Shown here piece after piece: positions 20,404-55,651 of a stretch of 64,000 nucleotides of DNA. The stretch comes from Patescibacteria group bacterium. Lineage in GTDB: Bacteria > Patescibacteriota > JABMPQ01 > JAQVVF01. The notes beneath the pieces are model-generated. The model had not been told where the DNA came from, did not search any database, and saw only the letters and a list, made by a program, of their open reading frames with translations. Each line of letters starts with the position of its first letter. Positions within the stretch are counted from its first letter, which is position 1. Location: positions 68,557-132,556 of the forward strand of contig JAQVVF010000002.1 of assembly GCA_028699085.1 (NCBI GenBank), read 5' to 3'. The position numbers and the translations under genes are program-made.

Positions 20404-21723
20404 TTACCAGCCAAGCCCATAATTAAATTGTCCGCCATTTCTTTTTGGAAAACGTCTGCTTCCTTGTCCGTCAGTTTGCTGACGTCCACGTCTTTGTCCT
20501 TGAAAATTAGATCTGCCTCTTCCTTGGAAGGAAGTATTAGTTCTAGCTTGTATTGGACGAAAAGAATTGAAAGCAGGCTGGATTGATTGCTCTAATTCTG
20601 GAGTTTTCGAAATACTAATGCTATTTCTAATTAGTCTTTCTATTTGAACAACTTTATATTTTTGATCTGACATAGCAAATGAAATTGCTCGTCCACCTTT
20701 TCCAGCTCTGCCAGTTCTACCAATTCGATGAACATAATCTTCTGGATCATCAGGCAAATCATAATTGATAACTAACTCAATACTTGAAACATCAATACCT
20801 CTTGATGCAACATCAGTTGCAACCAAAATTCTTGATCTGCCTTGCTTAAATAAATTTAAAGCTGCTTGTCTTTGAGCAAAGCTCTTATTGGAATGTATTT
20901 CAGAAGCATTGAATCCAGAAGTAATCAAAAATCTACATAATTTGCTTGCACCAAATTTAGTTCTAGTAAAAATTAATACAGTTCCTTTGTATTGTTTTAA
21001 CAATTTTGATACTAGTAATCTTTTTTGATGAGGATTTACAACAAACAATTCCTGATCAACATTTTCAGCTGCAGTGCCAGCTTGAGCTACTTCAATCCTG
21101 ATTGGACTTTTCATATATTTTGCTGCAATTGCAACTATTCTTCCAGGCATTGTTGCTGAAAACAACATCGTTTGCCTATTTGTTGGTACAGTTTCCAATA
21201 TTTCTTTAATTTGAGGCGCAAAACCCATATCTAGCATTCTGTCAGCTTCATCCAAAACTAAAGTATTAACTTTGCTTAAATTCAAATTGCGTCTTTGTAA
21301 ATGATCAATTATACGGCCTGGAGTGCCGATAATAATGTGTGGATGGCTATAGATTCTTTGTCTTTGCATGCTCATTGATGCGCCACCGACCAATATCGCA
21401 GTTTTGAGACCAAGAGTCCTGCCAATTTTTAATAATGATTCATCAACCTGCATCGCCAATTCTCTTGTTGGCAAAAGAATTAAACCTTGACCATTTGTCT
21501 TGGCAATTCTTTGCATCATTGGCAAACCAAAAGCCATTGTCTTACCAGTACCAGTTTGAGCTATGCCGATAATATCTTTTTCAGAAATAGCAACTGGAAT
21601 AGCCTTTTCTTGAATTGGAGTTGGAATTGTAAATTGTTGTTTTTTCAACGAATTTAAAAGATCTGGGACTAATCCTAGATTTAAAAACGACGCTTTCTTT
21701 GAAAGCACTGCTTCATTTGACAT
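20404..21723 (-). CDS. DEAD-box ATP-dependent RNA helicase with C-terminal RG-rich tail
   Basis: PTPIQ (Q motif), AQTGTGKT, DEAD, SAT, RGID, HRIGRTGR motifs. Start placed at MSNEAVL (21723) because a hairpin lies upstream; the track ORF extends to 21771. Confidence 0.88.
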   Translation of the reverse strand: MSNEAVLSKKASFLNLGLVPDLLNSLKKQQFTIPTPIQEKAIPVAISEKDIIGIAQTGTGKTMAFGLPMMQRIAKTNGQGLILLPTRELAMQVDESLLKIGRTLGLKTAILVGGASMSMQRQRIYSHPHIIIGTPGRIIDHLQRRNLNLSKVNTLVLDEADRMLDMGFAPQIKEILETVPTNRQTMLFSATMPGRIVAIAAKYMKSPIRIEVAQAGTAAENVDQELFVVNPHQKRLLVSKLLKQYKGTVLIFTRTKFGASKLCRFLITSGFNASEIHSNKSFAQRQAALNLFKQGRSRILVATDVASRGIDVSSIELVINYDLPDDPEDYVHRIGRTGRAGKGGRAISFAMSDQKYKVVQIERLIRNSISISKTPELEQSIQPAFNSFRPIQARTNTSFQGRGRSNFQGQRRGRQQTDGQGSRRFPKRNGGQFNYGLGW

Positions 21724-23579: not shown

Positions 23580-23717
23580 GATTTAAAACTTTCTTTATAT
23601 TTTTATATAAAAAGACACTCTGTCCAGACTGTCTTTTTAGAAAAACTTGATTATTTGATTATTATGATATAATAACAAAAATTAAATAATATGTCAAGTT
23701 TGCAACTTTTTATCACT

Positions 23718-23788
23718 TCGGGGACCCGGGAATCGAACCCGGTCTACATCCACCCCATGGACGCGTACTACCGGTATACTAGTCCCCG
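23718..23788 (-). tRNA. tRNA-Pro (anticodon GGG)
   Basis: Manual fold: acceptor CGGGGAC/GTCCCCG, D arm GTAT/GTAC, anticodon stem CGTCC/GGATG with loop AUGGGGU, T arm CCGGG-TTCGATT-CCCGG; 71 nt, CCA not encoded. Confidence 0.8.
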
Positions 23789-23901
23789 ACTTAAACATTA
23801 TTATATGCTTTAACAACCGCAAAATCAACAAAAAAAAAGAAGCTATATATAACTTCTTACATAAAAAAACAAAAAATATCATAGATCAAAATTAGAATTT
23901 T

Positions 23902-24555
23902 CTATTCGATTACTTCACATCTTATTGTCGGCTTGTTGCTCCATACGTACACCGCAGTAAGTGTAATATCAGCAACTGTCTCACTACCAACTGTTTGATA
24001 AAAACTAGTTTGGTACACATTGAAACGCAAAGAATCACTTCCTATAGACCTTTTGCTTCCATCATCTTCAATAATAAAACATTCGGAATCAACAAATTTA
24101 CTTTCTTTCCCATTGAGCGGAGCTTCTACTTTGACCTCATAACCACCAATCAATAAATTAGAAAAAGAATATGTCCCATCAAAATCTGGCGTATCAATTC
24201 CTTCATATTGGCAAAGAGGATTAGATCTACAAGCATCTATTAAATCGCTGTTATTGCCCTTATAGCTATACCGTATTCTCAGTTCCGTTTCAAAATCATT
24301 ATATTGCCCATTACATTCATGTTTATAAGTGTCTTCAACAAATACGCATTGTATTTTTCTACCTTCTTTCATGGCAGAATAAGGAATAACGCCTCCTCCC
24401 GGAAACCTGATATATATACTACCAGACACGCTTCCAAACTGATCTTCTGACAAAGTAATGGTTTGATTTTGACTCTGATCTTGTTCACAAGACAACAAAA
24501 CGCTTATCAAAACAAATATCACGACACTGAAAAATCGAGTCTTGTTCTCTAACAT
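23902..24555 (-). CDS. Putative lipoprotein, Cys-rich secreted
   Basis: Signal peptide ending LLSC (lipobox-like) from internal Met MLENKT; 6 further Cys. Confidence 0.45.
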   Translation of the reverse strand: MLENKTRFFSVVIFVLISVLLSCEQDQSQNQTITLSEDQFGSVSGSIYIRFPGGGVIPYSAMKEGRKIQCVFVEDTYKHECNGQYNDFETELRIRYSYKGNNSDLIDACRSNPLCQYEGIDTPDFDGTYSFSNLLIGGYEVKVEAPLNGKESKFVDSECFIIEDDGSKRSIGSDSLRFNVYQTSFYQTVGSETVADITLTAVYVWSNKPTIRCEVIE

Positions 24556-24891
24556 TCTCCCTCCTCTTTTGGGTTTCAACTATCACGAAATAATTTTCTA
24601 AAGATCTTTCTTTACATAAATTAATTTTCTTTAAACATTAATTTACATTACAACACTTTTCTATTTTGTCAATAAAAAAAGCCACATTGCTGTAGCTCTA
24701 CAAAAAGAACAAATTAACCACGAAGTTTCAAAAAATTCAATCTCTTATCTTTCGTTTTTCTCTGAATCGGAACTGTCAAAAATTTTTTCTTACAATGCTC
24801 AAAAGGAATACCTTCGCCTCGTCTTGTTTGATTTAACATAAAAACAGAATCTACCGACAAATGGTTGCTGAACAAAGTAATGAGCAATGCT

Positions 24892-25332
24892 TCAAAAAGT
24901 CTGCTTCCCATCTTGATCTCCTGTATCATCGAATATCCCTGAGAATCTGACCAAATCAGTCCTTAAATCACCAGGTCTCTTTCTTTCATCCTGCAATAAA
25001 AAATGGAAACCTTTGCCTTCAGATTCAACAGGATTACTATCATGTGGCAAAATCACCAAGTTCCAATTCTGAATACAGGTAGTATCTTGAAAAGGATTGA
25101 AATTCCTCAAGATCTCACAATCACATTTGATTTTCAAAGCCATGAAAAAAATGGTTACCCTTCCGAAATGAATTCTGCCAATTCCATTTTTTTGCATTTC
25201 ATTATATTCAGCGATCACTTCTCTGGTCTTTTCCAAACTATGAATTCCACCTTCACAACAACCAGCACGTCGCGCATTCAATTCTTGGTAAAAAGTTCCT
25301 ATCTGCATTTCACACCCCCTCCGATCCGACAC
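24892..25332 (-). CDS. GC-rich ORF B with CC...CDC...NWNL motif (paralogue of ORF A; possibly part of a frameshifted single gene)
   Basis: RAGCCEGG...KCDCEILRNF...CIQNWNLVI; composition clearly higher GC than surroundings. Confidence 0.3.
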   Translation of the reverse strand: MSDRRGCEMQIGTFYQELNARRAGCCEGGIHSLEKTREVIAEYNEMQKNGIGRIHFGRVTIFFMALKIKCDCEILRNFNPFQDTTCIQNWNLVILPHDSNPVESEGKGFHFLLQDERKRPGDLRTDLVRFSGIFDDTGDQDGKQTF

Positions 25333-25906: not shown

Positions 25907-26977
25907 TTAATTTATAGCTATATTCTCAATAATTCTTACAATATTTACCAAATCAGCTATTTTAATTTTCTCTTTTACACTATGACATTTTTCCCGACCA
26001 TAACCAATACTCAAAGACTCAATTCCTTTTTCACAAAAAACATTTGCATCTGTCGCTCCCATTCTCTTTTCATATGCTACTTTCAATCCCGACTTTCTAA
26101 TACCCTTTGAAATCATTTCGACTAAAGCGCTGTCTTTTTTATAATTATATCCAACAACTTCCTGCATTTTTTTCAATTCATATTTAGCATTGAATTTTTT
26201 ACAGCTATTTTTTAATTTTTTTTCTAATATTCCAATTTGTTTTTTAAAAATATTTTTATCAATCGCCCGAATCTCACCAACAAAATTTATTTCATCACAG
26301 ATTACATTTCCGCCTCTGCCACCAGAAACAACACCAATATTTGAAACACAATATTTGCTAATCCTGCCCGGCTTCCACATATTAATAAATTCTGCAAGAC
26401 AATTAATCGAATTCACGCCTTCTTCTGGCGCGCGCGAGTGCGCCATTTTTCCAATTACCTTACCCGAAAAACTCTGAATATATGGAGCGCCACAAGTTAT
26501 AAAGCCACAACGCGATGAACTATCAATAATTACTGCTCTCTTTGATTTCAAATTTTCGAAAACTAAATTCCTTGCTCCAACGCATCCAATTTCCTCCTGC
26601 ACTGTAAAAATCAATTCCAATGGCCGTACATTTTTTTGTTTTCGTAAATTTTTAACTGCCAACAAAATACCTGCAACACCGGCTTTATCATCAGCTCCCA
26701 AAATTGTCCTCCCATCGCTTCTGATAACACTATTTTTAATTATTGGCTTAATATTTTTTCCCGGCGAAACTGTATCCATATGAGCCGACAAAATTATTGG
26801 CTCGCCTCTGCCTTTTGTTTTTGCAATCACATTGCCGATTTTATCTTGCTTTGCTTTAATTTTAATTTTTTTTAAATAATCAATAATAAAATCAGCAACC
26901 TTTTTTTCATTGCCAGTTTCACTATTAATTTTTACTAGTTTCAAAAAAACTCTTACAACTTCAAGATCTCTCTTCAT
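25907..26977 (-). CDS. M20/M42-family metallopeptidase (peptidase T / tripeptidase-like)
   Basis: SAHMDTV and GADDKAG metal-binding motifs, EEIG. Confidence 0.78.
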   Translation of the reverse strand: MKRDLEVVRVFLKLVKINSETGNEKKVADFIIDYLKKIKIKAKQDKIGNVIAKTKGRGEPIILSAHMDTVSPGKNIKPIIKNSVIRSDGRTILGADDKAGVAGILLAVKNLRKQKNVRPLELIFTVQEEIGCVGARNLVFENLKSKRAVIIDSSSRCGFITCGAPYIQSFSGKVIGKMAHSRAPEEGVNSINCLAEFINMWKPGRISKYCVSNIGVVSGGRGGNVICDEINFVGEIRAIDKNIFKKQIGILEKKLKNSCKKFNAKYELKKMQEVVGYNYKKDSALVEMISKGIRKSGLKVAYEKRMGATDANVFCEKGIESLSIGYGREKCHSVKEKIKIADLVNIVRIIENIAIN

Positions 26978-27045: not shown

Positions 27046-28767
27046 TTAATCCATAAAAGAACAACTTGTCATTGCCGAATTAGATCGGCCATGAACAATA
27101 TAACCATCAGAGATTGGAATGCAAGTCACTGTATTTCCGCCAAAACTAGAGCTATTTGCATCATTATCAAGCCAATACCAAACACAAATTCTCGTCCGCA
27201 CATTTTCTTTGTCCGCCTTTTTATTAGCTGGATCAAAAATCATCATTTCATCAATTACCATCTCGCAATATTCTTGAGCAATAACAGTTCGTTGTTTTGC
27301 CATTTCCGCAAATGTTTTCACTAGCTTTCTCCATGTACTCCGCATCATCCCCTTACTAATTGCCACAGCATGTCCGCCAGCAGCTTTGTTATCACCACCC
27401 GACAACTTCAGCACTACTTCCGCATCCAATCTTTTTCTAGCCTGTCTAATTTTTACAAACCAATTTTCTCGACCAGACATCACAAAAATTTCTCGCCCAA
27501 CATTTTTAAACATTGTTACCATCTTTGTGGATTCAGGATCAGCCATTTTCCATCCTCTCGTTGACTTTGCCAAAGCCATCAAAGACTTCAAATCTCCCAA
27601 TCCTAAAAATATCTTTTTTCCTAGTTCCAAATCTTTTTTATCTCCCAACTCACGAAAACCAATCAGTTGCAAATTATTATCAAAAGCAAACCAATATTCC
27701 CGAATCTGCATATCTGAAAGTTCCTGCATTGATTCATTAGAATATTCAACGCCCTTCCAAATAAAATTGTTTCCTTTCCAAACAACTGTATAGGCAAAAA
27801 AATTTTTCAATTCAACAAAACCATCGCTTCCCAAAAATTTGATCCATTCTTCATTCAAACGCTCATCAAATAACCATGCCATCAATTCTTTATAATCCAA
27901 AAAAGTCAGCAGATTTGGATGCAGTAAAACTTTGCCATCAAAATAGGCATCAATAATCTTCTTTTCAATATCTGCTGCAAATACTGCCATCCTGTTTTTC
28001 TGTAAATCATTTTTGTCAATTTCAGAATATTCTTTGAAGACTCTTTCCACCAAATCAAGTTTTTTGCCTTTCAAATAAACTCCATCATCTTTGACTTCTG
28101 CCAGAAAAGATATCCCAAACAAAAAAGTCAAACCAAATTCTTTTCCGTATTCTTCAAACAGCTTTGTCAAAGCCTGCTGTTCCGGACCATAACCATCGCG
28201 CCAAGGAGTCAAAAGAATTCCCACATTTCCGCCATTTGGCAACAAATCATGGATAGCTTCGACATACTTTTTGGCAATTGGCTCAAAAAATTTTTTGTCA
28301 GGGAAAAAATTACGCGAAATAATATCAATTACTGCTCCATAACCAGAACCAGTTGCACCCAAAGTAAATTCATTAATCTTCAATCCTTCAGCAGTTCTGA
28401 TTGCATCAATCCGAATTCTTTTTGCCAAAATTACGTTTTTTCTTTCCAATTCTTTTTTCCAAATCTCAATCTGCAATTTTGACCGACCGCAACACAAATC
28501 CTGCCACAGCCAAGAATATTCGCCATTGCTTGATCTCCTCGCCAAATCAACACAACCTCTCAAAAATCTTGGAATCAGATCTTCAAGCCTTTTCAAAGTT
28601 GCAATCTCTCCACAAGTCAAAGCATAAGTTTCCAGCCCAATTCTTGCCGTATAATTTTTTGGCATAGTCCCAATTTTTCCCCAATAAAGACCTTGTTCCA
28701 AATATTCCTTTTCCATTTGCCTACCCAAATCATCATAATCAAACAGCTGTCTGCTCGTTCCCTGCAT
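27046..28767 (-). CDS. Large (573 aa) hypothetical protein with atypical codon usage
   Basis: Long ORF, protein-like composition, G/C-ending codons unlike neighbouring core genes; no family recognised. Confidence 0.5.
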   Translation of the reverse strand: MQGTSRQLFDYDDLGRQMEKEYLEQGLYWGKIGTMPKNYTARIGLETYALTCGEIATLKRLEDLIPRFLRGCVDLARRSSNGEYSWLWQDLCCGRSKLQIEIWKKELERKNVILAKRIRIDAIRTAEGLKINEFTLGATGSGYGAVIDIISRNFFPDKKFFEPIAKKYVEAIHDLLPNGGNVGILLTPWRDGYGPEQQALTKLFEEYGKEFGLTFLFGISFLAEVKDDGVYLKGKKLDLVERVFKEYSEIDKNDLQKNRMAVFAADIEKKIIDAYFDGKVLLHPNLLTFLDYKELMAWLFDERLNEEWIKFLGSDGFVELKNFFAYTVVWKGNNFIWKGVEYSNESMQELSDMQIREYWFAFDNNLQLIGFRELGDKKDLELGKKIFLGLGDLKSLMALAKSTRGWKMADPESTKMVTMFKNVGREIFVMSGRENWFVKIRQARKRLDAEVVLKLSGGDNKAAGGHAVAISKGMMRSTWRKLVKTFAEMAKQRTVIAQEYCEMVIDEMMIFDPANKKADKENVRTRICVWYWLDNDANSSSFGGNTVTCIPISDGYIVHGRSNSAMTSCSFMD

Positions 28768-29036
28768 TTTTTTCTCTCCTGCCTACATTTTTGTAGGCCC
28801 TGGTTGTAAAGAACAATCAAAAACCGGCTTTTAGAGCCGGTCTTTGCACAATATAATTTCTTTAAAAATTATCTTATATAATACAAAAATCGACTCATAA
28901 AAATGAAATGATAATGCCATGAATAAAATTTAAATTGTTGACTGATACTTAACATATATATACTTAATTGCTTATATTCGTACGATTAGTTGCAGTTGCA
29001 GTTGCATTCGCAATATTAATAAGATGAAAACAAAAA

Positions 29037-29063
29037 CTGGCCCAGATATTGAGCCAGCTTTTT
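29037..29063. terminator. Bidirectional terminator hairpin in 443-bp intergenic region
   Basis: A-run, CTGGC-ccagatattga-GCCAG, T5; A/T runs on both sides. Confidence 0.5.
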
Positions 29064-29210
29064 AAAAAAATTATTTAAAATTTATACAATAAAAAGTCGA
29101 CTCAATAATCTTGAATGCCAGTAATGTGTATAAAATTGTCGGCTAATATTTTTCATAATAATATATTATATAACACCTACATCTTTTGTCAATATAACTT
29201 ATCAACAGGC

Positions 29211-29693
29211 CTATTCTGTTCCTTTTTCTTTTTCAGAATATAAATAATCATAATCTATTTTTTTGTATTTAAATAATTCATCATTATTAAAAAATCTGAA
29301 TACTTCTTTCTCCGTATTTTCAGGACTATCGGAAGCATGAACAATGTTGCTTGAACCAGATATACATAAATCGCCTCTGATACTTCCAGCATCAGCTTCA
29401 TAGCCCTTTGTTGGTCCAACTAGCAAGCGAACAGCTGATATCGCATTATAACCTTCCAAAACTGCAGCAACACAAGGCGCACTTTTCATAAAACCCTTTA
29501 AGTCATTAAAAAAAGGCTTGTCCTTATGATGAGCATAATGTTCATCTAATAATACATCGCTTAATTGCATCATTTTCAATGCTGTAATTTTCAATCCTTT
29601 TTTTTCAAAACGAGAAATCACTTCACCTAAAAGATTTCTTTGCAAACCATCTGGTTTTATGATAACTAATGTTCTTTCAATTTTGTCTGGCAT
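29211..29693 (-). CDS. ndk: Nucleoside diphosphate kinase with ~25 aa C-terminal extension
   Basis: LVIIKPDG, NIVHASDS (catalytic His region), 160 aa. Confidence 0.92.
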   Translation of the reverse strand: MPDKIERTLVIIKPDGLQRNLLGEVISRFEKKGLKITALKMMQLSDVLLDEHYAHHKDKPFFNDLKGFMKSAPCVAAVLEGYNAISAVRLLVGPTKGYEADAGSIRGDLCISGSSNIVHASDSPENTEKEVFRFFNNDELFKYKKIDYDYLYSEKEKGTE

Positions 29694-29711: not shown

Positions 29712-31016
29712 TTAACCTTTAATTTTGTCCATTAATTTTCTTAACTTTTTCAAAATCCTGAACTGTCCATCTTCCATAAAAAAATCTTTCAAATTTATTT
29801 CTTTATTCAATCCTCTTTTTATTCTCTTTCTCCAAGAAGACTGCTCATGTGATTCTATTGTTTCAAGATACAGATTTAATAATTTCTGAGTTTGATTTTG
29901 GATCGAAAATAATTTTGCTAGTTCTAAAGACTTTGTCGACATTTTAGCACGTAAATCTGGATTTCGCAACAACTCTAAAACTTTTTCAGAATATAAATCT
30001 GAATCATCATTTGGAATTTCAAAACCATTCTCTAAATCCGCCACAACTGAAGTCAAACCTTCATCCTTCAACATTACAATTGGCAAACCAGAAGCTGCTG
30101 CTTCCAACAAAACCAAACTTTGAGTATCAGTCTTCGATGCAAAAACAAAAAATTCTGCATCTGCAAAACATTTTGGCACTTCATCTCGATTCGCAAATCC
30201 GCCAAAAATAACTCTGTCTTGCAATTTCATTTTTTCAAATTCATTTTTTAAATCATCTAAACTTGGTCCAGAACCGATTATCGCCATCACGCAATTTTCA
30301 TCTTCTTTAGCTACTTTTTCAAACATCTCCGCTAAAAACATCGGATTCTTGGGAAGAGCCACTCTGCCCAAATACATTATTATTTTCTTGTCAGCTGGAA
30401 TATTAAACTTTGATCTTAAATATTTTTTTTCAACATTACTAAATTTATCCAACTCAATTCCAGTCTGAATAACTGAAATATCATTTTTTACTCCATATTC
30501 TTGCAACATTTTTTTAACTTTTTCCGAAGGCGAAATTAAAGCATCGCATCTTTGGCTATAAAAAACTGAGATATCTTTTGCCAAGCTCATCACTGCTTTA
30601 TCCATCCTATACCAATTTTTAAATAATGAATGACCTGTATATTTTTCATAAAGCGTATGATAAGTATGGACAACTGGAATATTATAAAATAATGCTACAA
30701 TACTTGCATACATTCCCATATAAAATGGCGTATGAGAATGAACTATGTCAATTTTAAATTTATAAAAATCATGAAAAATCGGAGGTAGATTTGGAAGCGT
30801 CATTGTGAATTCCGAAAATACATCTTGCTTCAATGATTCAATACGATAAACTCTTGGACCATCTTTTGGAACATTTCCATTTTCATCTTTTAATAATGGC
30901 GCAAAAATAAAAACCTGATGACCTTGTTTTTCCAGTTCATCTTTGAATAAATCTATTGAGTTCGCAACACCAGAGACATAAGGATGATAGGTGTCTGTAA
31001 AAAATGCTATATTCAC
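29712..31016 (-). CDS. GT4-family (GT-B) glycosyltransferase, GTG start
   Basis: MNIAFFTDTYHPYVSGVA N-terminus, C-terminal EAAASGLPIV-like motif; extra ~60 aa C-terminal region. Confidence 0.82.
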   Translation of the reverse strand: MNIAFFTDTYHPYVSGVANSIDLFKDELEKQGHQVFIFAPLLKDENGNVPKDGPRVYRIESLKQDVFSEFTMTLPNLPPIFHDFYKFKIDIVHSHTPFYMGMYASIVALFYNIPVVHTYHTLYEKYTGHSLFKNWYRMDKAVMSLAKDISVFYSQRCDALISPSEKVKKMLQEYGVKNDISVIQTGIELDKFSNVEKKYLRSKFNIPADKKIIMYLGRVALPKNPMFLAEMFEKVAKEDENCVMAIIGSGPSLDDLKNEFEKMKLQDRVIFGGFANRDEVPKCFADAEFFVFASKTDTQSLVLLEAAASGLPIVMLKDEGLTSVVADLENGFEIPNDDSDLYSEKVLELLRNPDLRAKMSTKSLELAKLFSIQNQTQKLLNLYLETIESHEQSSWRKRIKRGLNKEINLKDFFMEDGQFRILKKLRKLMDKIKG

Positions 31017-31174: not shown

Positions 31175-31891
31175 CTATCTTATGTCGACAAAATCACTTG
31201 GCTGTTTTTTTAAAATAAAAACATTCCAATAATTTTTGATGTGAAACCATAAAAATTTAAAAAATCCCTTCTGAAAACGTCTTGGAGATGTATACACAAA
31301 AATCTTTGGATCAAAAACAACTTTACCATATTTTTTTAATTTCTGGCCTAGATATATATCTTCTGCTGATTTTAGATTCAAATCATATCCGCCAGCTTTT
31401 TCAAAAAAATCTTTTCGATATGCAAAATTCATTCCCGTCACATTATCTTTTCCAAATAATCTCGATATGTGCAAAAACAAAGTATAAATATATCTTGCTA
31501 GAAATCTTAAATAAAATGGACCACCGTTCATTCTTACACTGCCATAAAACAAGACCGCATTATTTTCTTCAAAATATTTGCTAATTTGACTAAGCCAGTT
31601 TTTTGGATAAACCGTGTCAGCATCGCAACTAACAATAATATCACCTTGTGCAATTTTAGCTCCAGATTGCCTAGCATAAGACACGCCTTTTCTGTTTTCT
31701 TTAACAATCTTTAAATTAGAAAAATTATGTTTTTTTGCTACATCCAAAACAACGCCTTCAGTATTATCAGTGCAAGCATTCAAGCTAATAATTAATTCAT
31801 AATCAACAAAATCTTGACTGACCAATGATTCAACGCAAGGTCTAATATATTTTTCTTCATTATATGCTGGAACAACAATCGAAATTTTCAT
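31175..31891 (-). CDS. GT2-family glycosyltransferase (polyprenol-phosphate sugar transferase-like)
   Basis: ISIVVPAYNEE, DAD motif (SCDADTVY), 238 aa. Confidence 0.82.
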   Translation of the reverse strand: MKISIVVPAYNEEKYIRPCVESLVSQDFVDYELIISLNACTDNTEGVVLDVAKKHNFSNLKIVKENRKGVSYARQSGAKIAQGDIIVSCDADTVYPKNWLSQISKYFEENNAVLFYGSVRMNGGPFYLRFLARYIYTLFLHISRLFGKDNVTGMNFAYRKDFFEKAGGYDLNLKSAEDIYLGQKLKKYGKVVFDPKIFVYTSPRRFQKGFFKFLWFHIKNYWNVFILKKQPSDFVDIR

Positions 31892-55570: not shown

Positions 55571-55651
55571 GCCGAAGTGGCGAAATGGCAGACGCGCACG
55601 ACTCAAAATCGTGTGAGTTTACTCATGAGGGTTCGACTCCCTCCTTCGGCA
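55571..55651 (+). tRNA. tRNA-Leu (anticodon CAA), type II with long variable arm
   Basis: Acceptor GCCGAAG/CTTCGGC, anticodon stem CACGA/TCGTG with loop CUCAAAA, variable stem TGAG/CTCA, T arm GAGGG-TTCGACT-CCCTC. Confidence 0.85.

Follow-up and report, generated by a model that had tools for sequence, protein, structure and literature searches.

Between ndk and an open reading frame (ORF) of 573 amino acids (aa) in a Patescibacteria group bacterium lies a 443-bp spacer crowded with repeats, hairpins and promoter-like motifs, which raises the question of what this spacer does and for which gene. The window analysed here is the whole 64,000-nt stretch of contig JAQVVF010000002.1 in which it is found. 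Patescibacteria/CPR bacteria have tiny genomes and take amino acids from their hosts, and to our knowledge almost nothing is known about their gene regulation. The original prediction placed the spacer at exactly these limits and divided it into four elements, namely direct repeats, a bidirectional terminator, promoters on both strands and, on the minus strand, a leader of attenuator or riboswitch-like type. The limits hold and nearly all of the motifs are present, but they are not separate elements; they form a single minus-strand unit, in which a promoter is followed by two paralogous modules of ~130 nt (Table 1). Most likely, the spacer serves as 5' leader (~390 nt) to an operon of a ligase and an M20 peptidase in this Saccharibacteria-like CPR bacterium, and it probably comprises two ribosome-mediated (leader-peptide) transcription attenuators in series. 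This reading draws on pairing that is specific to one register, a small number of compensatory changes, a reading frame that is open throughout and conservation of an RNA-like kind.

Table 1. Features of the spacer and its neighbouring genes (positions in the window; 1:2, 2:3 and 3:4 stand for pairing between numbered regions of a module).
Feature	Position	Strand	Details
ndk	29211-29693	-	gene upstream of the leader
Spacer	28768-29210 (443 bp)	-	from ndk stop to start of the 573-aa ORF
Sigma-70-type promoter	29165..29192	-	-35 TTGACA 29192-29187, 16-nt spacer, -10 TATAAT 29170-29165
Module 1	29156-29031	-	24-codon ORF, terminator, helices 1:2, 2:3, 3:4
Leader ORF 1	29082..29156	-	24 codons plus stop: MKNISRQFYTHYWHSRLLSRLFIV
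Region 1, module 1	29138..29144	-	AGCCGAC, codons 5-7; pairs with region 2
CUGGC	29117..29121	-	overlaps Tyr-Trp-His codons UA(C UGG C)AU; from the MFE fold
Region 2, module 1	29090..29107	-	UAUUGAGUCGACUUUUUA; Leu-Leu-Ser-Arg-Leu-Phe codons
Region 3, module 1	29047..29064	-	UAAAAAGCUGGCUCAAUA; antiterminator 3' arm and terminator 1 5' arm
Intrinsic terminator 1 (3:4)	29022..29062 (scan 29062-29032)	-	13-pair stem, 5-nt loop, then UUUUUGUUUU
Inter-module spacer	28956..29021	-	GCAAC x3; two GCGAAT-type heptamers (UGCGAAU, UACGAAU)
Module 2	28955-28818	-	28-codon ORF, terminator, helices 1:2, 2:3, 3:4
Leader ORF 2	28869..28955	-	28 codons plus stop: MLSISQQFKFYSWHYHFIFMSRFLYYIR
Region 1, module 2	28937..28943	-	AGUCAAC
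Region 2, module 2	28874..28901	-	UUUAUGAGUCGAUUUUUGUAUUAUAUAA; from forced folds
Region 3, module 2	28829..28856	-	antiterminator 3' arm and terminator 2 5' arm
Intrinsic terminator 2	28812..28846 (scan 28846-28818)	-	CAAAGACCGGCU-CUAAA-AGCCGGUUUUUG, then AUUGUU
Pre-Shine-Dalgarno hairpin	28781-28798	-	GCCUACA-AAAA-UGUAGGC; ends 1 nt before the Shine-Dalgarno sequence and leaves it uncovered
Shine-Dalgarno sequence and ATG of the 573-aa gene	28765..28780	-	AGGAGAG
Regulated gene 1, orphan ATP-grasp ligase	27046..28767	-	573 aa
Regulated gene 2, M20 metallopeptidase or deacylase	25907..26977	-	PepT-like / ArgE-DapE family

Transcription of the unit would begin at the minus-strand TTGACA-16-TATAAT, which had been placed at 29195-29168, 3 nt away from its actual position, and which matches the consensus at 12 of 12 positions in a promoter scan. 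TTGACA-16-TAnnnT is found at the same place in all six leaders compared, and the -10 element lies 6-8 nt from the leader ATG in four of the six (8 nt in the window). The transcription start that we infer, about 29158-29156, either coincides with the ATG of leader ORF 1 or precedes it by 1-2 nt, and this ORF would therefore be leaderless. A second promoter, TTGACT-15-TATACT, had been proposed on the plus strand; its 15-nt spacer falls outside the range of the scan and it is not conserved. Its '-35' hexamer TTGACT comes from region 1 of module 2 (AGTCAAC) read on the opposite strand; the other species have AGTCGAC in this region, and hence TTGTCG in place of the plus-strand hexamer.

Two intrinsic terminators were detected in the 2-kb region scanned, compared with 0.8 +/- 0.9 in shuffled sequences, and both are conserved in all homologous leaders. 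The terminator-like hairpin predicted at 28820-28846 on the minus strand is terminator 2, while the CTGGC...GCCAG hairpin, thought to terminate in both directions, is terminator 1 and was flagged on the minus strand only. Terminator 1 probably also ends ndk transcripts, since ndk has no separate terminator upstream of it. The hairpin foreseen before the ribosome binding site was likewise recovered, as GCCTACA-tttt-TGTAGGC directly 5' of GGAGAG. Three homologous loci (L005, L009 and L010) have hairpins of other sequence at the same position before the Shine-Dalgarno (SD) sequence, and the element may serve to stabilise a 5' end or to mark a site of processing.

Transcripts of ~100-130 nt had been expected in both orientations. 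For the minus strand, sequence logic and conservation point to an RNA that ends at the first terminator; neither conservation nor the scan lends support to the plus-strand one. A promoter followed ~130 nt on by a terminator does predict an abundant short RNA, and terminated attenuator RNAs can act in trans, as outlined for rnTrpL in Sinorhizobium (PMC6614838, PMC7968998). It is nevertheless highly improbable that the locus consists of stand-alone sRNAs or small-protein genes, transcribed from one or both strands, which act in trans without regulating what lies downstream. The element occurs only before this ligase family, whatever the gene upstream, module 2 lacks a promoter consensus, and a trans role would supplement a cis role and not substitute for it.

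The imperfect direct repeats of the original prediction are real but were understated, being parts of two paralogous attenuator modules and not elements of their own. Aligned by themselves, the repeats of 45-50 nt give a z of 4.2, whereas alignment of the full modules (29156-29031 against 28955-28818) gives a z of 8.4, which was reached by none of 2000 shuffles; the two ORFs differ by a 6-nt in-frame indel. Covariance model R1 scores the two modules of the window at 113 and 135 bits. Its next best match in the 64-kb window, 31.8 bits at 21554-21684, lies antisense inside a gene, is without ORF or terminator logic and was dismissed as spurious; no further module copies were found in the window using blastn-short or the covariance model. 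The GTTGCA x3 mini-repeat, reported earlier, is present at 28989-29006 and is the GCAAC x3 of the inter-module spacer on the minus strand. A promoter scan of this spacer (28956..29021) returned no promoter consensus, and inspection by eye of the five two-module species revealed nothing consistent as a -10/-35 of module 2's own. Of the motifs shared by the repeats, TCGACTCA corresponds to region 2 and ATGCCA to the CUGGC site at the Trp-His codons (29117..29121). The two short ORFs and the antiterminator pairings had been overlooked.

Folding and alignment give three mutually exclusive helices per module, arranged as in trp-type attenuators; a test for exclusive terminator and antiterminator folds in the minus-strand leader had been suggested earlier. 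Region 1, in the 5' part of the ORF, would pair with region 2, in its last codons; alternatively region 2 would pair with region 3, or region 3 with region 4 to form the terminator. In module 1, regions 2 and 3 form an inverted repeat (I7) of 18 nt with 83% complementarity, and region 1 is proposed to be the arm of an anti-antiterminator or pause helix; the corresponding repeat of module 2 (I1) spans 28 nt with 71% complementarity. CUGGC can in addition pair with GCCAG of region 4, which extends the 2:3 helix into a long hairpin.

Pairing statistics were obtained from ten aligned units, which are related by descent; the comparison as a whole covers six species-level sequences. RNAalifold returned exactly the 1:2 helix and the terminator, and no further helix. 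The 1:2 helix (columns 13-19/62-68) is 94% paired, with compensatory changes in columns 14/67 and 15/66 and variation among G-C, A-U, G-U and C-G, U-G, U-A pairs. The 3:4 terminator is 96.5% paired, column 121/139 being C-G in six units and U-A in four. The 2:3 helix has 88% of its cells paired when in register and shows compensatory changes in columns 59/127 and 67/119, and for CUGGC:GCCAG 94% of cells are paired across the ten units, with one-sided variation only. Taken together in register, 1:2 plus 3:4 is 95.7% paired and 2:3 plus CUGGC:GCCAG 89.8%, and sliding the partners by 1-3 columns reduces pairing to only 23-55%. Covariation is thin, at two to three compensatory pairs per structure, and shuffle controls were only marginal.

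When region 1 was masked, 2:3 was more stable than 3:4 in ten of ten units, the margin being 6-10 kcal/mol for module 1 and for both modules of locus L006, and 0.3-2.4 kcal/mol for the four remaining units of module 2. In module 1 of four species, folds with a ribosome mask at the stop codon gave a terminator probability of 0.83-0.97, and folds with the A site at codons 5-9 gave 0.1 or less. The antiterminator of module 2 wins narrowly, and only with U-tract pairs left out; equilibrium folding of module 2 predicts termination in every ribosome state (window, L001, L005 and L009). Since the 2:3 state leaves region 4 able to pair with CUGGC beside the U-tract, the long hairpin of that state might itself terminate.

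The sequence of events that these structures suggest is that of a classical attenuator. RNA polymerase would start on or beside the AUG that opens leader ORF 1. A ribosome that reaches the stop codon would cover region 2, allowing 3:4 to pair and terminating transcription with an RNA of ~130 nt, while an early stall, with the A site at about codons 5-11, would cover region 1, free region 2 and favour the 2:3 antiterminator and read-through. If no ribosome translates the ORF, 1:2 would form first and then 3:4, so that termination would result too. Expression of the ligase and the peptidase would require read-through at both modules. We infer that the leader switch would be coupled to translation, and the leader ORFs bear on this point.

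In the 11 units, the leader ATG is invariant and frame 1 contains no stops, compared with 22 and 16 stops in frames 2 and 3. The stop codon lies 10-19 nt past the core of region 2, in a fixed position relative to it. ORF 2 has neither an SD sequence nor a recognisable promoter of its own, but a missing SD would be no objection to its translation, as only 6 of the 57 ORFs of the window have an SD-like motif; the strong SD of the 573-aa gene is unusual here. Divergence at third codon positions is 7-26% for the leader ORFs and 27-55% for the ligase gene; in the leader ORFs it does not clearly exceed that at the first two positions, and non-synonymous codon changes outnumber synonymous ones. The invariant UGG and CGA/CGG codons sit within helices, so that RNA pairing alone could explain their invariance. 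Judged by these alignments, conservation of the leader is RNA-like and not protein-like. The peptides are not hydrophobic helices and there is no conserved antisense promoter, and a type I toxin was rejected.

Conservation at the nucleotide level is also what would be seen if an RNA-binding protein or small ligand chose among 1:2, 2:3 and 3:4, with the ORFs being incidental. A frame would stay open by chance in any one unit with a non-negligible probability of about 0.2, and in several species the terminators are followed by YGYGAAT/CACAAAT heptamers, spaced by ~10 nt, to which an oligomeric protein could bind. Such a translation-independent attenuator is unlikely in our estimation. All 11 units, divergent L006 and L010 included, preserve the ATG together with an open frame, the in-frame indel and the position of the stop, the promoter puts the ATG at the extreme 5' end in four leaders, and the heptamers are absent from L001. 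The Rfam comparison that had been suggested as a check placed the leader in no family: nothing in the region reached a gathering score, the sole match in the window being a tRNA elsewhere, and the sub-threshold matches (E up to 10) were driven by the terminator, the best of them, to L20_leader with 25.8 bits against a threshold of 58.7, covering the terminator only. No aptamer family is matched, and module 1 has between its regions 1 and 2 no more than ~40 nt, variable and weakly structured (48 in module 2), too little for a typical aptamer. Of the two options originally offered for the minus-strand leader, the attenuator is supported by sequence logic and conservation, and little speaks for the riboswitch.

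If the switch is a ribosome-mediated attenuator, the stall window should hint at its signal. Phe, Tyr, Trp and His make up 31.9% of the leader peptides, compared with 10.2% of the proteins of the window, and they occupy four to six of codons 6-14 across the ten aligned units. The stall window follows the pattern RQF[HY]x[YH][YF]W[HY], rich in Phe, Tyr, His and Trp codons, without the single-codon run of trpL, hisL or pheL. Since this window is rich in these codons, our best guess is that the signal would be a shortage of charged aromatic or His tRNAs, which fits a symbiont that has to scavenge amino acids.

To place the leader in a wider context, homologs of the 573-aa gene were searched for and their upstream regions compared. 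A two-module leader precedes all five close homologs (80-52% identity), and as the genes upstream of it differ (ndk, hypothetical ORFs, a HAD-hydrolase neighbourhood), the leader is tied to the ligase gene. The more distant homolog L010 (37% identity) has one module, with the different sequences UUGGCU / AGCCAA / GGCUGGUUU / AAACCAGCC and the same three helices, whose energies are equal (-40.0 and -40.0 kcal/mol); its stop codon is too distant from region 2 for full cover by a terminating ribosome, and its peptide has nothing but MKNI and a W-x-H motif in common with the other leader peptides. A protein scan of JGI metagenomes gave no more homologous leaders, a GTDB genome scan gave only two loci, both duplicates of contigs already included, and no ligase-family protein beyond the same 7 came out of 5.8 billion clusters searched with a profile. 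The DNA pattern CGACAATTT-N12-TGGYAT-N11-17-GAGTYG had 12 metagenome matches, mostly GC-rich and without ORF or terminator context, which were set aside as chance.

The first regulated gene encodes an orphan ligase with no match among Pfam, NCBIfam and PDB sequences. Its AF2 model (pLDDT 71) predicts the fold of eukaryotic-type glutathione synthetase, GspS and YjfC/YgiC. Foldseek against the PDB gave E values of 1e-9 to 4e-5 with probability 1.0 for 8fbz, 3kaj, 7uk6, 7uk8 and 2io7, to which the protein is only 9-12% identical, with TM-scores of 0.30-0.55. Distant relatives of the family are 430-480 aa long, about 100 residues shorter, and are labelled 'hypothetical protein' at most; one has a faint match to Pfam GSP_synth. 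The M20 gene follows the ligase wherever a contig reaches a downstream gene (window, L001-L004, L005, L006-L008) and is probably in the same operon, and its protein has weak, sub-threshold matches to [LysW]-lysine hydrolase and ArgE/DapE deacylases. We know of no link between either gene and any amino acid.

These enzymes invite another reading, in which the short ORFs encode precursor or scaffold peptides for the ligase and the M20 protein, of RiPP or LysW type, and the hairpins, as leaky terminators, determine how much peptide is made per enzyme. The pair of ligase and peptidase genes is always immediately preceded by two paralogous small ORFs, the ligase fold is that of an amide-bond-forming ATP-grasp enzyme, the M20 matches would suit such a pathway, and partial terminators after precursor genes are common in RiPP clusters. 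The constant position of the leader ORFs immediately before the ligase gene, with the M20 gene next wherever a contig reaches far enough, is predicted by the attenuator model as well. The peptides show no purifying selection at the amino-acid level, their third positions being no more variable than the others, and they undergo radical replacements where base pairs persist, as in region 2 of L006, where Arg CGG has become Trp TGG and the pair is retained as a G-U wobble. Their C-termini vary (A, V, Y, R, L), and in L010 the RNA switch logic is intact with the peptide almost wholly changed. Acidic residues are nearly absent and lysines few, so that no Asp/Glu or Lys cross-link pattern is seen, and a precursor gene would not need 1:2 and 2:3 pairings within its ORF. 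We therefore regard precursor peptides as improbable. A combined version, in which the peptides double as translation sensors and as substrates or carriers for the ligase and M20 protein (LysW/'pearlin'-like) in Saccharibacteria-like CPR only, is similarly doubtful; its weaker form is a CPR-specific aromatic-starvation attenuator that switches on scavenging in an organism unable to make amino acids.

Two serial ribosome-mediated attenuators thus remain the preferred reading. If it is true, translation-coupled transcription control operates in CPR bacteria, apparently from a leaderless start; our literature search found no paper on leader-peptide attenuation in Saccharibacteria or CPR. The condition that stalls ribosomes on RQF[HY]x[YH][YF]W[HY] would then be the one calling for the ligase and peptidase, which gives a lead, open to experiment, on the role of the 7-member ligase family. 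The layout of an ORF with 1:2, 2:3 and 3:4 helices could also serve as a search template for attenuators that have no Rfam model.

Among known systems, two short ORFs within one long leader are also found in mgtCBR. In mgtCBR the two ORFs have no relationship to one another and respond to separate signals (ATP; proline-charged tRNA), whereas the modules of the window are paralogs (z = 8.4), each followed by a canonical intrinsic terminator. In Salmonella mgtCBR, translation of the short ORFs mgtM and mgtP is anticipated to steer the stem-loops of the leader, and hence transcription (PMC3641672). The ribosome stalling proposed here, on a short ORF, which would remodel downstream RNA or termination ahead of genes that are not amino-acid biosynthetic, is likewise shared with the antibiotic- or metabolite-sensing leaders ermCL, tnaC, speFL and yxjB of B. 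subtilis, the last described as a tylosin-inducible leader of the arrest-peptide type (PMC6851288). Arrest leaders of this kind need a nascent-peptide sequence that is conserved at the amino-acid level, in contrast to the RNA-like conservation seen here and the unrelated peptide of L010. The leader of the window is probably of a known attenuator type, without an Rfam family match. It resembles trpL, hisL, pheL, leuL, thrL and ilvL of Proteobacteria and the trp and ilv/leu leaders of Actinobacteria in its leader ORF, its exclusive 1:2, 2:3 and 3:4 helices with 3:4 as an intrinsic terminator, region 1 within the ORF, a stop codon close to region 2 and a predicted terminated RNA of ~130 nt. Unlike these classical attenuators, it matches no Rfam leader by sequence or covariance model, and has a mixed Phe/Tyr/His/Trp stretch instead of a homopolymeric run of regulatory codons, a first ORF that is apparently leaderless, two modules in series and an extra CUGGC:GCCAG pairing; and the genes that it would control in this CPR bacterium, for an orphan ATP-grasp ligase and an M20 peptidase, do not make up a biosynthetic operon.

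A 443-bp spacer separates ndk from the gene of the 573-aa protein in a window of 31.6% G+C, and every gene flanking it lies on the minus strand. The minus-strand promoter put forward in the original prediction is a perfect TTGACA-16-TATAAT. Of the terminators proposed there, two intrinsic ones were recovered on the minus strand, but the bidirectionality predicted for one of them was not, the plus strand being unflagged in the scan. Stand-alone or plus-strand small RNAs are very improbable, as nothing supports them beyond the expected terminated leader RNA. The hairpin directly before the AGGAGAG ribosome-binding site of the 573-aa gene and the threefold GTTGCA mini-repeat are both present. Only 18 nt lie between the ndk stop codon and the -35 element, and ndk is without a terminator of its own; transcription of ndk probably continues into the leader as far as the first leader terminator. 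No curated Rfam family matches the spacer, none covering its promoter, hairpins or repeats. Elsewhere in the window, Rfam at the gathering score detected a tRNA-Leu and missed a tRNA-Pro(GGG).

The ~45-bp direct repeats noticed earlier are real (alignment z = 4.2), but they are the cores of two longer paralogous modules rather than separate elements. The modules align with z = 8.4, a score reached by 0 of 2000 shuffles. Read on the minus strand, each begins with an ATG and a short ORF and ends with a terminator, and between these lie the mutually exclusive terminator and antiterminator folds that the original prediction had proposed to look for. Four helix arms (regions 1-4) would form the anti-antiterminator (1:2), antiterminator (2:3) and terminator (3:4). 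Region 2 (UUGAGUCGACUUUUUA, the last ORF codons) is complementary both to region 1 (AGCCGAC, codons 5-7) and to region 3, which serves as the terminator 5' arm, the latter pairs being inverted repeats I7 and I1. Seen from the opposite strand, the repeat motif TCGACTCA corresponds to region 2, and ATGCCA to the Trp-His codons. CUGGC, over the Trp codon and its neighbours, is able to pair with GCCAG in the terminator 3' arm, which in module 1 gives a long-hairpin MFE structure (z = -3.9 versus shuffles).

The contigs of the six other relatives of the 573-aa protein found in 5.8 billion protein clusters were compared. In five species (100-52% identity) a non-coding stretch of 380-610 nt with the same two modules precedes the gene, while the upstream neighbours vary (hypothetical ORFs, ndk or a HAD-hydrolase neighbourhood). 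The promoter elements TTGACA and TAnnnT, 16 nt apart, occur in 6/6 leaders, and in four of these the ATG of ORF 1 stands only 6-8 nt past the -10, implying that ORF 1 is leaderless. Using RNAalifold, alignment A2 of 10 units (single modules) independently yielded the 1:2 helix and the terminator. On author-defined structures for these 10 units, the share of paired cells is 95.7% (1:2 plus 3:4) and 89.8% (2:3 together with CUGGC:GCCAG), against only 23-55% when partners are slid by 1-3 columns. Two-sided changes occur at alignment columns 14/67, 15/66, 121/139, 59/127 and 67/119; this covariation is supportive, not decisive, because the units are few and share ancestry. The most independent support for the predicted switch layout comes from the 37%-identity homolog (L010), whose single module has different sequences (UUGGCU, GAGAAAUCAGCCAA, GGCUGGUUUCUC and AAACCAGCC). 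It keeps an ATG after the promoter, a 30-codon ORF and the same three helices, with terminated and antiterminated folds of equal energy (-40.0 and -40.0 kcal/mol).

From the ATG to region 2, frame 1 holds no stop in 11 units, compared with 22 and 16 stops in frames 2 and 3; the chance of an open frame is ~0.2 per unit. The length difference between the two modules is an in-frame 6-nt indel, and without exception the stop codon lies 10-19 nt past the region-2 core. A missing Shine-Dalgarno (SD) sequence is no argument against translation, since an SD-like motif lies within 20 nt of the start in only 6 of 57 long ORFs (at least 120 codons, whole 64-kb window). Most ORF starts there have plain A/T-rich surroundings; exceptions, with strong GGAGG-type sites, include the 573-aa gene itself and several of those directly downstream. 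A translation-independent attenuator, protein-binding or riboswitch-like, could draw on YGYGAAT/CACAAAT repeats past the terminators that might bind a factor, but with ATG, frame and stop position conserved this reading, judged on six sequences, is unlikely. These sense-strand heptamers, spaced by ~10 nt, could be a protein-binding array; they number 2-11 in each of the window, L005, L006 and L009 leaders (most in L006), are absent from the L001 leader, and in L005 also lie upstream of the promoter.

Between species, 7-26% of third codon positions differ in the leader ORFs, which does not clearly exceed the divergence at positions 1 and 2; in the ligase gene of the same genomes the third-position figure is 27-55%, about twice the second-position rate. 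Non-synonymous codon changes outnumber synonymous ones, and in L006 the region-2 Arg codon CGG became TGG (Trp), the base pair being kept as a G-U wobble. Together these patterns suggest constraint on the RNA and the reading frame, as expected of a regulatory leader peptide, and the peptide itself is probably not the product.

The 573-aa protein had no sequence match in Pfam, NCBIfam or PDB; a hypothetical protein from a 'Patescibacteria group bacterium' MAG is 100% identical to it. Its AlphaFold model (7-sequence alignment, pLDDT 71) matched eukaryotic-type glutathione synthetases, E. coli YjfC/YgiC and glutathionylspermidine synthetase in Foldseek (E 1e-9 to 4e-5, probability 1.0). Together with a faint GSP_synth match in one distant relative, this makes it a predicted orphan ATP-grasp carboxylate-amine ligase. 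The family is extremely rare: 5.8 billion clusters yielded 7 sequences, the GTDB species representatives 2 and the JGI metagenome collection none. Among GTDB genomes of named lineage, a Candidatus Saccharibacteria MAG is the only one to contain a homolog. The nearest relatives, mostly 430-500 aa, are labelled at most 'hypothetical protein'. An M20 peptidase or deacylase gene follows wherever the locus extends far enough downstream, a pairing that makes it attractive to view the leader peptides as substrates of both enzymes (RiPP or LysW-like); given that substitutions follow an RNA-like pattern and that the L010 peptide is unrelated, this is improbable. Directly 5' of the ligase SD most homologs have a hairpin, whose sequence varies from one to the next; that of L005 and L009 is a GC-rich ~32-nt palindrome (GTCCRCC...GGYGGAC; two copies in L009) resembling a small repeated element. 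A 26-codon hydrophobic ORF (MKKFVILVVLAVILGIVEHLAQRKKS in L010) occurs in L010 and L011, the most distant of the homologs, and is absent from the window; its end overlaps the ligase start codon in an ATGA, which suggests a small membrane peptide whose translation is coupled to that of the ligase.

Features of the leader locus and of homologous contigs (~, approximate)
Feature	Contig	Position	Strand
GT2 glycosyltransferase	window	31175-31891	minus
GT4 glycosyltransferase	window	29712-31016	minus
ndk	window	29211-29693	minus
ndk stop to -35	window	29193-29210	
Spacer, between ndk and 573-aa ORF	window	28768-29210	
Promoter	window	29192-29165	minus
Module 1, peptide MKNISRQFYTHYWHSRLLSRLFIV (stop)	window	29156-29031	minus
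Module 2, peptide MLSISQQFKFYSWHYHFIFMSRFLYYIR (stop)	window	28955-28818	minus
Terminators	window	29062-29032, 28846-28818	minus
Heptamers	window	29006, 28976	minus
Heptamers	L005	649-670, 1012-1042	sense
Heptamers	L006	4699-4740, 4898-4962	sense
Heptamers	L009	1860-1876	sense
Ligase-SD hairpin	window	28781-28798	
Ligase-SD hairpin	L005	~1200-1240	
Ligase-SD hairpin	L009	~2060-2125	
Ligase-SD hairpin	L010	~395-435	
573-aa ORF	window	27046-28767	minus
M20 peptidase	window	25907-26977	minus
Downstream genes with GGAGG-type sites	window	23902-25308	
tRNA-Pro(GGG)	window	23717-23789	minus
tRNA-Leu(CAA)	window	55571-55651	plus
Hydrophobic ORF	L010	476-556	
Hydrophobic ORF	L011	1-63	
Trp_repressor-family HTH	L001	3730-4053	
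Trp_repressor-family HTH	L002	507-830	
Ornithine carbamoyltransferase	L006	7983-8876	
Arginyl-tRNA synthetase	L006	9844-11694	

The RNA was folded with a ribosome footprint kept single-stranded. With the ribosome at the stop codon of module 1, predicted terminator probability was 0.83-0.97 in the window, L001, L005 and L009 (0.46 in L006); with the A site at codons 5-9 it was at most 0.1 (0.03 in L006). When region 1 was masked and the RNA ended at region 4, 2:3 was more stable than 3:4 in 10/10 units, the advantage being 6-10 kcal/mol for module 1 and for either module of L006, and 0.3-2.4 kcal/mol for the remaining four module 2 units. At equilibrium module 2 is termination-biased in the window, L001, L005 and L009, so how it acts would hinge on the kinetics of folding. 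Under the proposed attenuation mechanism, smooth translation to the stop codon would cover region 2 and cause termination, while early stalling within the ORF would leave the ribosome over region 1, allowing the antiterminator and polymerase read-through. Lack of translation would give 1:2, then 3:4 and termination, and two modules in series may sharpen the response.

We infer a putative stalling signal from codon content, codons 6-14 reading RQF[HY]x[YH][YF]W[HY] and thus being rich in Phe, Tyr, Trp and His. These residues make up 31.9% of leader peptides versus 10.2% of window proteins. However, UGG and the rare Arg codons CGA/CGG lie inside helices, and base pairing by itself may account for their presence. 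Gene context offers possible clues to the signal or pathway: in one relative (L001; also on L002) a Trp_repressor-family HTH gene ~950 nt upstream of its leader, and ornithine carbamoyltransferase and arginyl-tRNA synthetase genes close downstream of the M20 gene in L006.

The spacer is thus a real, conserved, predicted cis-regulatory leader of an already known kind, showing four structural features of the leader-peptide attenuator class. No description of such attenuators in Saccharibacteria or CPR was found in the open-access literature, and the leader is of moderate interest for its host lineage, its tandem paralogous design, the putatively leaderless ORF 1 and the predicted control of an orphan enzyme. 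The region can be likened to the tandem-ORF leader of Salmonella mgtCBR (PMC3641672). It is predicted to work as classical leader-peptide attenuators do, with the same stop, stall and no-translation logic as the trp attenuator.
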